DNA from: Octopus vulgaris
Taxonomy: Eukaryota
Length of the DNA stretch: 64,000 bases
Assembly: GCA_951406725.2 (NCBI GenBank)
Contig: OX597814.1
Span: 44,454,001 to 44,518,000, forward strand
Direction: 5' to 3'
Positions within the stretch are counted from its first letter, which is position 1, and each line of letters opens with the position of its first letter. The notes below the pieces were generated by a model. It was not told the origin of the DNA, searched no databases, and saw nothing but the letters and a program-made list of their open reading frames with translations. Shown one piece after another: positions 14,090 through 23,254 of the stretch. The position numbers and the translations under genes are program-made.

Positions 14090-14179
14090 TTTCGGTACAA
14101 TTGTTTCGTACGAAGACCACCTTTATTAAGGCTGCAAATATTGCAGCAAATATAAGTGACCCGTACTCATCAGCCGAAA
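14090..14179 (-). ncRNA. Type I hammerhead ribozyme with canonical core and 59-nt stem II domain
   Basis: Minus strand: TTTCGG-CTGATGA-GTACG[GGTCAC..GCTGCAA-TAT-TTGCAGC..GTGGTC-TT]CGTAC-GAAAC-AATT-GTA-CCGAAA. 6-bp stem I, palindromic stem III, GUA cleavage triplet (cut between 14096 and 14095). Confidence 0.85.
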
Positions 14180-14514
14180 GAACATCTGAGTTCTCAAAAC
14201 ATCTAAGGGGGTGAGGCTACACTCCTGAAACATCAGGGATAGTTCTATAAAAATTAGATTTAGATAATAAAGGAACTTCCAAAGTTCTTTAATGTTGCAC
14301 AGTCATGTAACAGGTTTTTAAAAAGTATTTTTAAAAACCTCTTAGTTTCACAGAAAATGAAAATGTAAATCCATCCATAATAATGAAGTATGTTTGAATT
14401 CTGGAGATATAAGGAGAGATTTCATACTCACAGACGATGTATTTATCCATAATTAGTCCATAATAAAGTGGGTTTCCTGATGTATATATATATATACCCT
14501 TACACAACTCACAC

Positions 14515-15910
14515 ATTTCTTTAAATCTCTCTTGAGTCTTGCAGGCGCTATCCTGGCCAATTCAAACGCTTTCATTCCACTCCACGCGTTTGTTTTCCAT
14601 CCAGCTAGATCCTCTAGATCCATTGCAAGTAATTTCATGGTAGTCCTTATGCCGTCCACCTACCCCTTTTTAGGTTTACACTGATAGCATTTCCCCCTGC
14701 GTGCTCACCATAAAACAGCTGTTTGGGCGTGCGTTCATTCGCCATTTGAACATTATGGTCACACAATCTCATTTGTTTTTTCAAAACCATAGTTTTGATT
14801 CGGGTAATGCTTGAAGATACAAAGACATCTGTGTTTGGAGTAAAAGATGAAAGCATGTGAAATGTCTTTCATAATATGTCCAAGTTTCAGAAAAATACAA
14901 CAGGGATGGTAACACAAACGATTTGTAAACAGCCAACTTTATATTGTTATTTATATATCGCTGGCGCCAAACGCATGGCTCCGAGCCACATTTTGAATTC
15001 GCAGATGTATATCTGTATCCATATTTCCAACATTTTGTACAGAGCTTCCAAGGTTAAATGAAAGAATTCACAACGTCAAGTAACTTACCCTTAACAAAAA
15101 GTTTTGTGGGGTTGCAAACAGCACCACATGTAGGTTGATACATTACAAATGTTTTTTTCAAGTTGATGGTGAATCCAAAATCATCTCAAGCTGAATCAAA
15201 TGCAGATACAAGAGATTGCAGACCTTTTTCAGAATGACTAACTAGATCGCACTCATCAGCGTATAAGAGTTCCTAATGAGTGAAGTAAAAACCGTCGTTT
15301 TGAATATCAGTCTGGTCAGATTAAAAACCTTCCCTGCTGTTCGATATTTTATGTAAATACACTTTTTATGTAAATACAGTTTTGAAAAGCGTGAGACAAC
15401 ACAGCAGCAAAGCATATTGCAAAGACGATGAATGCATCAAGGTCTCCTTGCTTTACTCTATTTTCCACGGCAAAAGATCCAGAGAGCCTACCAACAAAAT
15501 TAACTGTAGCTTTCACATCTTGATGCAAAACCCTGATCATGTTTACAAATTTTTCTGGGCAACATATTTTCTTTAGAATTAGCCACAGAGCATTTCGATT
15601 AACAGTATAGAATGCTTTGCTCAAATCCGCAATGCAATGGCATAGAGCAAGATTCTGTTCAATGCACTTTTCTTGCAATTGTCTGATAGTAAAGATACAA
15701 TCAGCTGTGCCCCTAGAAGAACGAAAACCAGACTCAGACACCATATTTGGAACTATGAAAGTACTTAAACCTTCTAACATGATGTGGGCAAGTACCTTTC
15801 CAACCACAGACAAACGAAAATTACCACACAGATCCTTTGGTCCCAATTTATACAAGGATATTGAAATGGCATCAATCCAGTCTTGAGGCACTTTCTCCAT
15901 TCTCCCACTT
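14515..15910 (-). mobile_element. Degraded RTE-clade LINE (RT fragments)
   Basis: ORF 15349-15900: VPQDWIDA..SGFRSSRGTADCIFTIRQLQEKCIEQ..DLSKAF..VKQGD; YADE near 15255; PKQLFYGE in the 14647-14856 frame; many disablements. Confidence 0.9.
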
Positions 15911-18900
15911 CAATTGTAGTCTATAAATCTGGAAATATTTTAACGCAGGCATTTTCAACTTTGCATTTCTATTTCGGACATTTACTTGTAAGCTTGAAAT
16001 TATAACTCAGAACTACCCATAACGAAATAACATTTCCTATATCCTATTTTTTTTGTGCATAATTTATCTCTGCATTTTAATATGTTAATATACTAACCGG
16101 CTACCTTCATCCGATAAAGTCCAGTAACATTTGTTTATCGTTTGTTTTCGTTTCCACTAATTGCTTCGTCCGTTGCTTTTCTCGTTCAGACAACTTCTAG
16201 TTAATTTGATACATATCTTACATATATTTATATAAAACACTAAATCCATATCCGTAAGTACTTTTGAACACCCATTCATTAGTAAGACCCCTTAGACTAT
16301 TCATTCCTTAAATATTCTTATTTTTATTTTTACCTGTCTTGTACATCTTTGATAGTTGTGCGGACCTGAACAACGCCATTGTTTTCAAATATTAGCTGAC
16401 CAATTAAGTTGTGGGATTAACTTTGATCTCACCCTACTAGCCATAGGGGTATTGTGATTAGATTTCTGTTAATAAGTGACAAGGTTTTACCTAATTTTAC
16501 CTAATTTTTCTTTCATTGATATACTTCTGTATTGCATTTCCCCAAACAGGCTCACAGTAAGTTAATTTTGGCAATTCCTTCTATAATGCTCTATTAAACA
16601 GGAGTTAGTCTCTAACTTCTGCCCCCTGTGGCATGGATTATACCATTAAACTCACTAAACAAAGTCCTACTCTCGCTATTTCCTCCAGTATATTTGAAAC
16701 ACGATGTACCCTTCACAACCTGCGGAGATTTCTCCTGGGGGTGACTGGCTTTTACCATGAGATGCAATACCATGGATTACGATAGAACCTTGAAATGAGG
16801 TTCTTACCATTCCTTACTATTTCTATTCTATTATTCATATTTTATTTTACTTTATAATTTTAACTTTCCCACATGTTAATTTCCTAACATTTGGTCTCCC
16901 TACTGAAACCTTGGGGCTCAACCATTGTCCAACACCTGTCCAATGTTTATTCGTCGCTGTATATCACTGGCGTGATGTGGAAAACTTGCAAGAGTTGGCA
17001 ACCTCATGGTAGTATCAACTATAAGAGTGTAGTATTTGTACACTCATCTATTTTTATTCATTTATTATTATTTATATATTTATTTACATTTTATTTGTTT
17101 ATTTGGATCAATTACACATATAATTGTAATCAATTAATAGATATGTATAATTGACTGATTACAGGCTGATGTTTGTCAATTACTTATCCTCTCCATTTTC
17201 TTATTTGCCTCATAAATCCTGGGTAAATTTCTGATTTACCCCCACCCATACCTAGTATTCAATTGCGACATTGCCCTAAGCACTTCGATACTAATACATA
17301 GGTAGAGGGCCAATTGTATATTGGATATTTAATATACCTTAGATGGTTAATTAACCGCTAACTCGTACAAACACACACACACACACACACACACACACAC
17401 ACACACACACACACACATATATATATATATATATATATATATATATATATATATATGTGTGTGTGTGTGTATATATATACATATGTATTTATATACATAT
17501 ATAAACGATAAGGAGAAGACAATTTTTAAATGATCAGAAGCCGACAGTGTTAATAGCCTAATATTCGGGTAGAATGCTTCTTTGAAAGTACCATAACTTT
17601 ATACCCTTCCAATACCTTAGAATTTTACTCTATACCGAGAGTATATATATATGGAAGTATATATATATATATATAATTTCAGCAAAACAATTTAGATTCA
17701 AATGAATATGGTACTTAACTTAGATGCACCAGAATTTATTTATGGTATTACCCATAAAATTATGTGGGGTGATTATAACCCAAAAATAAGCAACAAGTTT
17801 GTACTAAACTACCGATCCATTCTTGTTGCTTATTTTTTGGTTATATATATATATATATATACGCACACATACACACACCCACACGCACCACACACACATA
17901 CACGTGTGTGTGCATGTATATAAAGTAGTGCATAGTGTTTTTTTCAGTCTAATTGTATCAATTTATCTCTGGACTATTTGAGAATATTATACCTATAAAT
18001 TATAACCGATGCAGAAGAGCCCTAAAGCATAATATTGTATCTTATGGCTATGGGTTTATTTCTGTTTTCTGTAATAATGTATATTGTTTCTTAACGTTTA
18101 TAAATCCTTAGAATATATTAGTTTTTTTCTTCCATTCTGTCATTACAGTTTCTTTTTCTCTTATTACTGTTTATCTACCATTGCTTTTGAATAAGCAGCT
18201 AACTTGATGCATTGAGTTACCTAGTTCAAATCTTTTTATTGTTGATTTTACCCATCATTCTTCCGAAGTTGTTACATTTGATTTCTAGCATGCGCAATTT
18301 TAGATTTAATCAACAACACTCCTCTCTGAAAACGCAAAACACTGTGCTTGTGCTACAAATACTCATTAATAGTCGACTAGCAGTGTGTCGTAAAAACTAT
18401 TGACTGGTAATGTAACAGAAAAACTGTCCCGCTAAGTAGGTACAATGTGGATGATTGCCTTGTAGAAGTTACGTCTGTCCACTACTGATATTATACACCA
18501 AAAGGGAAATTATCAAGACAAGGAGAAGACTCTAGGTAATCGTTTGATTTGGTAGATATAACAGCTAAATATCAGTAAAATCACATTATATATAAACAAG
18601 AGTATTAGCAAACACACATATACACATATTTTTATGTTTACATTCATATCGATTATATTCTATTGTTTCTCTTCAAATGTGTTTCATTTGTCTATTCGTG
18701 CACAAAAATATGTGTACTATCTCGGTAGCACATATAGCCGTTTCAGCTACACACATATCTTTATCTATACACTATCTTTATCTCCACGCTATCTTTATCT
18801 CCACATATACCAAACAATAACTGTCAGAGAAATAAAAACAATGATTACTTTACACTAGCAGACATCTTTGAAACGAACGAACAAAACATATTAGTTTATT

Positions 18901-22200: not shown

Positions 22201-22269
22201 ACACTGATACATAGCAGGCAGACATGCTGTCGTGTAGTGCAATAATAATGCTGATGGTGGTGATGATTT

Positions 22270-22720
22270 CAAATTTTGCCAGAAGGACAGCAGGTTCGGG
22301 AAGGGGCTAAGTCGATGACAAGAACCCTGGTGCTCAAATGAGTTCGATTTAATTTCATCGACCCCGAAAAGATGAAAGGTAATGTCAACCTCGGAGGAAT
22401 TCGAATTCAGAAAGTGAAAACAAACGAAATGCCTCCAAGTATTTTATCCGGAATACCAGCCTGAATAATTATGATAATAATAACAACAACAATAATAATA
22501 ATAATAATAATAATAATAATAATAATAATAATAATAATAATAATAATAATAATAATAATAATAATAATAATAACCCTTTCTAATATAGTCACATGGCCTG
22601 AAATTTGGAGGGAGAGGTGTAGTTGTTTTCATCGACACCAGTACTCACCTGATACTTATTTTATCTACCCCGAAATGAGGAAAGGCAAAGTCGACTACGG
22701 CGGAAAATCATCTCAGACCG
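22270..22720 (-). mobile_element. Two degraded SINE family B copies separated by (AAT)n (22491-22573)
   Basis: ATCGACCCCGAAAAGATGAAAGG..GGAATTCGAATTCAG and TCTACCCCGAAATGAGGAAAGGCAAAGTCGAC match the reverse complement of family B. Confidence 0.75.
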
Positions 22721-23176
22721 TAACAAAAACAACAACAATAACCATTAACGGAACCCGTGGAAATTCAATGTTTTCAATATATTTAAAATATTATGTTAGT
22801 GCAGGAAACAAGCAAGGAATTTCAATAACTTTCTGTTCAAATCCTGCCAATTTACTATAGTTTTAAATAGAATCGAGGTGACCTTAGAAGGTATTGTTTA
22901 CTTACCTTCTTTTAATATGACAGATATGATGTGCTTTACAGTTTAAGAGTATAAAAGAGGAATCAAAAGATTAATCCTTTTCATAGACACACACGCACAC
23001 ACGCACATACACACACACACACAAACACTCGCACATATATATATATATATATATATATATATAGAAATTCGGGGTGAGTACTTGATAATTATAAGCACCT
23101 GTGTATACCGTTTGGTGGTGTAGGTGGTGGAGTAAATTGATCAAAATAAAAATAAAAACATGAGGCGAAGGATTCA

Positions 23177-23254
23177 GCGGTACATATGTTTCGGGCCTTT
23201 ATTAGACAGATTTATAACAAAGCATAATGTATGTCTGTGGCCTTCTTCAGCCGC
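23177..23254 (-). ncRNA. Type I hammerhead ribozyme with 51-nt stem II domain
   Basis: Minus strand: GCGG-CTGAAGA-AGGCC[AC-AGACA...TGTCT-AATAAA]GGCCC-GAAAC-ATAT-GTA-CCGC. Palindromic stem III; first stem II pair is A.C. Confidence 0.8.

Follow-up and report, generated by a model that had tools for sequence, protein, structure and literature searches.

A candidate poly(A) signal kept within the long stem II of hammerhead ribozymes in one lineage of octopus Penelope-like elements

Why would a self-cleaving ribozyme carry AAUAAA within one of its own stems, at polyadenylation distance from its cut? The question is raised by a 64,000-nt stretch of the Octopus vulgaris genome (contig OX597814.1, positions 44,454,001 to 44,518,000; hereafter the window), in which two hammerhead motifs, HH1 and HH2, lie in copies of two Penelope-like element (PLE) families, A and B. 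A preliminary description of this DNA proposed that ribozyme and hexamer form a dual 3′-end module sorting transcripts into polyadenylated mRNA or ribozyme-cut template. That module is plausible as a lineage-specific device, whereas its generality and a poly(A) site nearby are unsupported. The stem II hexamer could act as the element's poly(A) signal, in competition with a ribozyme cut almost at the same site, a reading that we consider a serious possibility somewhat short of an even chance.

Both motifs were confirmed on the minus strand with the frame first described. HH1 (14090 to 14179; family A) is a type I hammerhead motif with a 6-bp stem I, a 59-nt stem II insert, and the palindromic stem III ACAAUUGU; its frame, CGG-CUGAUGA-59 nt-GAAAC-AAUU-GUA-CCG, occupies 14093 to 14176, and the predicted cut falls between 14096 and 14095. 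HH2 (23177 to 23254; family B), of the same type, combines a 4-bp stem I, a 51-nt stem II insert, and the palindrome ACAUAUGU in the frame CGG-CUGAAGA-51 nt-GAAAC-AUAU-GUA-CCG (23178 to 23253), with its cut predicted between 23181 and 23180. The hexamers, TTTATT on the forward strand, are likewise where they had been reported: that of HH1 (14122 to 14127) lies in the stem II 3′ arm 26 nt upstream of the predicted cut and is mostly base-paired by prediction; that of HH2 (23198 to 23203) lies in a stem II internal loop 17 nt upstream of the cut and is predicted to be unpaired. Downstream of the cuts follow, on the same strand, a U/GU-rich tract in HH1 (14056 to 14080), which runs into the short genomic end and (TA)n, and a U-rich tract in HH2 (23143 to 23161). 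The hammerhead core (CUGANGA, GAAA, and NUH) is present in both and invariant in 17 of 17 subfamilies. HH1 has the G10.1-C11.1 pair with which stem II begins; in HH2, the C faces an A, and a GGCC/GGCC helix follows. A long stem II forms in the predicted fold of HH1 (z of −2.5 versus shuffles), and HH2 alone folds no better than shuffles (z of 0.3). Judged from sequence, HH1 and HH2 are almost certainly PLE hammerheads, and the earlier assignment of the ribozymes to PLEs is supported. A relaxed hammerhead scan of the window returned four candidates, HH1, HH2, and two weaker ones; of 159 matches in an Rfam scan, the 150 listed include no hammerhead. A third, short-stem hammerhead-like motif (28795 to 28833, plus strand; stem I of 6 bp, stem II of 4 bp, and 1-bp stem III) had no relatives among the loci examined. 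The 9-mer TAATAAAGG occurs six times in the window, on both strands, and two of these occurrences are inside the ribozymes.

The two cases are real but not independent: A and B are related PLE families, their endonucleases being ∼45% identical, so the hexamer common to HH1 and HH2 can be inherited. Conservation was read from the lineage of HH1 and HH2, whose 83 distinct cores fell into 33 clusters. The resulting 24-member alignment, in which the window copies stand for families A and B, left out three unrelated clusters, six internal-deletion copies, and L133 (AAUGAA), with L063 added. A hexamer is present in the 3′ half of stem II in 23 of the 24 subfamily representatives (AAUAAA in 11, AUUAAA in 9, UAUAAA in 3, and none in 1), or in 23 of 25 when the full-length L133 is counted; the mean probability of a hexamer in shuffled sequence was 0.10 to 0.12 per sequence. 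An insect survey places these three variants first to third among its poly(A) signals (51.6, 12.2, and 4.4%, respectively; PMC9505298). The distance from hexamer to cut is 16 to 17 or 22 to 26 nt, although stem lengths differ, and thus falls inside the 10- to 35-nt poly(A) window; a U/GU-rich tract follows hexamer and cut in the lineage alignments, completing the sequence arrangement of a poly(A) site. Within alignment A1, three of the five invariant stem II columns belong to the hexamer. In family B, the hexamer is the sole sense AAUAAA in 4,416 nt, versus 19 in antisense, with 0.1 expected in the 3′ untranslated region (UTR).

How widespread such ribozymes are was assessed over 2.8 Gb in 227 contigs. 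The frame shared by HH1 and HH2 had 3,058 exact matches versus 0 for the reversed control, so that, in the genome-wide collection that had been called for, the frame is not a product of chance. Four further, non-overlapping stem I patterns yielded 3,665, 4,223, 2,714, and 18,358 matches (controls, 2, 138, 217, and 132, respectively). All patterns together mark ∼32,000 type I hammerhead motifs with a long stem II, belonging to 39 or more similarity groups, against fewer than 500 control matches in total. Long stems II are common among the hammerheads of this genome, because the short-insert version of the GG/CC pattern gave just 36 matches. The groups derive from a sample of 312 loci, taken mostly from the first part of contig C1 and hence not a census; the 167 motifs that passed the filter were sorted into 66 clusters and, more loosely, into 39 groups. 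In the most abundant other group, an AAUAAA or AGUAAA ends 9 to 12 nt downstream of the cut (e.g., L273 to L277 and L061:1941-2064; 6,182 pattern matches, some counted twice, with 0 in the control); this word may be a stem I strand or a poly(A) signal and, as the latter, would add to the case for the poly(A) reading. Stem II of several other groups contains 5′ splice-site-like words, GUAAGU or GGUAAG (L154, L261, L266, L270, L291, and L292). A retrozyme-like family F consists of tandem 532- to 535-bp units (L145 to L150 and G000:C1:40931793-40938271), each with one long-stem-II hammerhead and no ATG-initiated open reading frame (ORF) over 48 amino acids; its use as a natural hexamer-free control was rejected, its relatives also being without hexamer. 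A metagenome scan gave 119 loci, four of which passed the palindrome and stem filter, and none of these resembled the octopus families.

Both families are high-copy repeats, with 1,501 candidates for A and 1,852 for B at a first look across the genome. The window contains a 5′-truncated family A copy (14054 to 14485, minus strand), which comprises the 3′ UTR end, the ribozyme, and a short end ∼42 nt beyond the cut and is flanked by (TA)n runs, and a 5′-truncated copy of the young family B (23060 to 25202, minus strand), 97.8% identical to the full-length copy L124. The latter retains a remnant of the C-terminally placed GIY-YIG endonuclease (24858 to 25202, minus strand; residues 729 to 842 of the 842-amino-acid frame P0001) 1.7 kb upstream of HH2; beyond the HH2 cut it extends for 121 nt (23060 to 23180, minus strand) that match the beginning of the element's 5′ UTR exactly, and this long genomic end is followed by (TA)n. 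Full family B copies encode P0001 as a single open frame, in which a reverse transcriptase (RT) is followed by the C-terminal endonuclease; it bears DKT, YRDD, a CxCX5C linker, YIG, and, at the C terminus, CxxC and CxH, motifs that mark the Hydra clade (PMC8557442). Its Pfam GIY-YIG match is weak (E value of 0.073), and the Pfam search found no RT family match; homologues number 573 at E ≤ 0.001, those listed being 30 to 44% identical, and the nearest named ones are from Argonauta hians. Family A copies elsewhere carry the homologous endonuclease ∼1.1 kb upstream of the ribozyme. The unit is circularly permuted, i.e., it runs from the cut site through a ∼200-nt 5′ UTR, the RT and GIY-YIG ORF, and a 1.1- to 1.7-kb 3′ UTR to the ribozyme; it measures 4,416 nt in family B, and L124 is almost exactly one such unit. 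Where copies stand in tandem, what follows the cut continues as the 5′ UTR to the ATG. Copy ends fall into two classes, 29 to 49 or 116 to 128 nt beyond the cut in 56 of 59 family B copies (three run on) and 33 to 46 or 164 to 167 nt in 35 of 36 family A copies (one runs on), and nearly all of them adjoin (TA)n. Compared by eye with the text of the published Hydra supplement, the elements are Hydra-like PLEs; a Naiad identity was rejected, since the endonuclease sits C-terminal.

A poly(A) signal placed in such a unit would act as follows. Transcripts taken by the host cleavage and polyadenylation machinery would become mRNA, and those that read through, or are cut by the ribozyme and religated, would keep the downstream RT start sites and could serve as template. 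The ribozyme may cut as a dimer, as its palindromic stem III suggests. A polyadenylated transcript lacks the downstream ends needed for a copy of the ORF-ribozyme-tail type and could therefore serve only as mRNA; full templates would have to read through or be circular. Folding of stem II might hide or expose the hexamer. The ribozyme also lies ∼200 nt upstream of the ORF ATG in tandem copies, a point missing from the preliminary description, and an active poly(A) signal there would need silencing, which stem II folding could plausibly provide. In its fullest form, the proposal is that a cephalopod PLE lineage built a poly(A) signal into hammerhead stem II, with an 80-nt fold deciding between mRNA and ribozyme-cut or read-through template, the ribozyme itself making the polyadenylated end in the boldest version and a sister group placing the signal just past the cut; we regard this whole as possible but less likely than not.

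Several observations weigh against the poly(A) reading. The 24 subfamilies are one lineage, with perhaps two to three independent cases, and the representatives N1 and N2 were picked by eye with the hexamer already known. By prediction, the UAAA of the hexamer is paired with UUUA in most subfamilies. A U-rich tract is also found downstream of ribozymes without hexamer, and family A 3′ UTRs contain three to eight sense AAUAAA, mostly upstream. Across the 39 groups, AAUAAA and AUUAAA were not enriched at −45 to +35 of the cut (9 versus 9.9 expected, with 15 in antisense), leading us to reject a general enrichment of poly(A) signals near hammerhead cuts; hexamers in the stem II region of the 56 representatives outside the lineage numbered 5 versus 9.1 expected. 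Conservation of AATAAA, on which the dual-module proposal had been staked beforehand, hence holds in the lineage of HH1 and HH2, with AUUAAA and UAUAAA admitted as variants, and is not general among the long-stem-II hammerheads of the genome. The Hydra-clade hammerheads listed in File S2 of PMC8557442 have short stems II without hexamer. All 95 measured copies of families A and B reach past the cut, although copies ending at the cut are under-sampled because the search queries included sequence beyond it.

Poly(A) sites near the GUA, the other expectation attached to the proposal, were not seen in contigs or retrocopies, both weak tests. The RNA evidence consists of assembled contigs from sequencing runs, none on record as RNA, and contigs cannot show transcript ends. 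Copy L049 is covered by four runs, three of them probably RNA and one probably DNA, and the 24 of 92 loose ends listed include none with poly(A); contigs extend to both genomic ends, into (TA)n, and probably reflect host read-through on both strands. An A10 run within 30 nt of the cut was absent from family A, B, C, E, and F copies (27 matches examined), and no poly(A) retrocopy turned up in these families. Between positions 900 and 2010 of L049, the differences that prevail in the probable RNA runs are A>G and T>C, and several of them are absent from the DNA run; in run X2, A>G affects the last two As of AAUAAA (L049:1639-1640) at about 10% of depth. This pattern suggests A-to-I editing of read-through transcripts from both strands, alleles being another possible source. 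Two of the probable RNA runs contain an opposite-strand joint at L049:1565-1681 (depths of 94 and 46), absent from the other two runs, which may represent one expressed inverted copy.

The strongest competitor is a structural one: the extended stem II would contain an AU helix, and the hexamer would be its A-rich strand, inherited, retained through descent and for the sake of folding, and like a poly(A) signal by composition. We hold this to be a realistic possibility, at about a third of the weight of certainty. The UAAA-UUUA pairing is predicted in most A1 subfamilies and in families C and D, all 17 subfamilies have U-A at pair 31-64, and where E and M subfamilies differ by AAAA/UAAA, the hexamer register moves together with its partner; the lack of enrichment over 39 groups and the single lineage in an AT-rich genome also fit. 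In the 17-subfamily covariation analysis, 88.6% of cells were paired, a value reached by none of 500 shuffles, and 9 of 17 pairs (a count that excludes the stem II base) changed on both sides. Covariation is seen in stem I, in the apical hairpin, and in the palindrome, further evidence that the frame is no product of chance; all three stem I pairs change on both sides, and the stem III palindrome is 100% paired. RNAalifold returned no consensus structure for A1. However, flanking pairs covary freely while the hexamer strand does not. In one hexamer pair, all 17 subfamilies retain the A, and the U opposite it is lost in four without compensation; in family B, where the partner is lost, the hexamer is intact although unpaired by prediction. 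The variable positions read AA, AU, or UA, bar one old copy (CU).

A second alternative takes the hexamer as a sequence-specific ribonucleoprotein contact, either a binding site of the RT-endonuclease or a contact, tertiary or switch-like, through which the ribozyme is controlled. The anole PLE hammerhead, which cleaves only with its protein (PMC11167929), makes such a contact conceivable, and a UGUAA...UUACA-type apical hairpin recurs across several groups, in opposite orientation between two sub-lineages. The tertiary contact, already mentioned as an alternative in the preliminary description, draws some support from the UAAA-UUUA pairing in most subfamilies. In HH1, the hexamer arm can also pair with the downstream U-rich tract (−8.9 kcal/mol; shuffle P of 0.03), but cognate arm-tract pairs were no better than non-cognate ones in A1 (P of 0.75) and marginally better in A2 (P of 0.027; seven related sequences), and arm-tract pairing as a conserved switch is unsupported. 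The distance from hexamer to core further differs by ∼10 nt between two sub-lineages, and we judge this contact improbable. A TATA-like promoter element, which would start the ORF transcript just beyond the cut site of the upstream repeat, is very improbable: the ribozyme's position upstream of the ATG in tandem copies, TATAAAG in families C and D, and putative TATA boxes in rotifer pseudo-long terminal repeats (PMC3846280) speak for it, but AATAAA and ATTAAA dominate (20 of 23), the spacing to downstream conserved motifs varies by ∼10 nt, and the promoter of Drosophila Penelope is internal and TATA-less (PMC2377424). A branch point was dismissed, the AUUAAA and UAUAAA subfamilies lacking YUNAY at the place of the hexamer.

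Elsewhere in the window, a fragment at 17696 to 17796 shows 84% similarity to the part of family A that follows the cut. Two ORFs encode RTs of the long interspersed nuclear element type, one at 49419 to 51065 (plus strand; Pfam RVT_1, E value of 2e-32) and one at 15349 to 15909 (minus strand; E value of 6e-10), the latter adjoining the family A copy. Between two tandem A2 copies, L107:3770-4432 (plus strand) holds an uninterrupted 221-amino-acid frame, which may resemble dCMP deaminase.

PLE hammerheads, their palindromic stem III, (TA)n targeting, the idea of a circular template, and polyadenylation versus self-cleavage in hepatitis delta virus (HDV) are all published, and the long-stem-II form is a new version of PLE hammerheads. 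The literature searched yielded neither a poly(A) hexamer inside a PLE hammerhead nor long-stem-II PLE hammerheads of cephalopods, earlier descriptions of either poly(A) signals or long stems being possible; a term search of the main text of an octopus repeat annotation (PMC13282606) found no mention of ribozymes. The role of the hammerhead in PLEs has been called unclear (PMC8557442). If the hexamer is indeed a poly(A) signal, its place inside the ribozyme would account for the production of both mRNA and template from a single permuted unit. Whatever the hexamer does, the ∼32,000 motifs, which Rfam missed here and which span dozens of families, including a young one with open reading frames, form a rich natural set of covarying ribozymes.

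Among known systems, the poly(A) hairpin of human immunodeficiency virus type 1, a long terminal repeat retrovirus, likewise holds AAUAAA inside a terminal-repeat hairpin at both transcript ends, without a ribozyme. The closest known counterparts of families A and B are the Hydra-clade PLEs (Craig et al. 2021, PMC8557442), which share the single ORF for RT and C-terminal GIY-YIG endonuclease with DKT, CxCX5C, CxxC, and CxH, the (TA)n targets, tandem and inverted copies, and a hammerhead near the end. They differ in that the listed Hydra hammerheads have stems II of 3 to 8 bp with loops of 3 to 10 nt, compared with inserts of 51 to 65 nt in the octopus lineage; in that their units are generally under 3 kb (a descriptive, not diagnostic, trait) versus 4.4 kb for family B; and in the RWK motif, whose place reads RWA in P0001. 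Of the 24 distinct Hydra entries in File S2, inspection by eye showed AATAAA or ATTAAA in 8; the word stands before or after the ribozyme within the 80 to 100 nt given, and in no case in stem II. Four stem III words of octopus families were absent from the same supplement, in which line breaks could hide matches. The minimal PLE hammerheads (Cervera and de la Peña 2014, PMC4209133) are similarly of type I, with a palindromic helix III implying dimers, located in terminal repeats, present in thousands of mostly truncated copies, and explained by a circular-RNA template; their helix II has 6 to 8 bp, and the Results and Discussion of that paper do not treat a poly(A) signal. In the green anole Poseidon element (Frangieh et al. 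2024, PMC11167929), repeats end downstream of the hammerhead, a tail is set off by two classes of ends, and targets are AT-rich; the two end classes of the octopus families match its internal reverse-transcription starts. Its ORF begins inside the ribozyme, whereas the octopus ORF begins ∼200 nt downstream; its insertion in vitro does not need cleavage, and the RNA-seq data of that report include no ends at the cut. The nearest functional parallel is HDV (Brown et al. 2008, PMC2396440), which has its own ribozyme type rather than a hammerhead and an antigenomic poly(A) site 33 nt upstream of the ribozyme cut, its signal thus lying upstream of and not inside the ribozyme. There, AAUAAA polyadenylation and self-cleavage were experimentally shown to be alternative transcript fates coupled by RNA folding, the same arrangement that is proposed here for the octopus elements.

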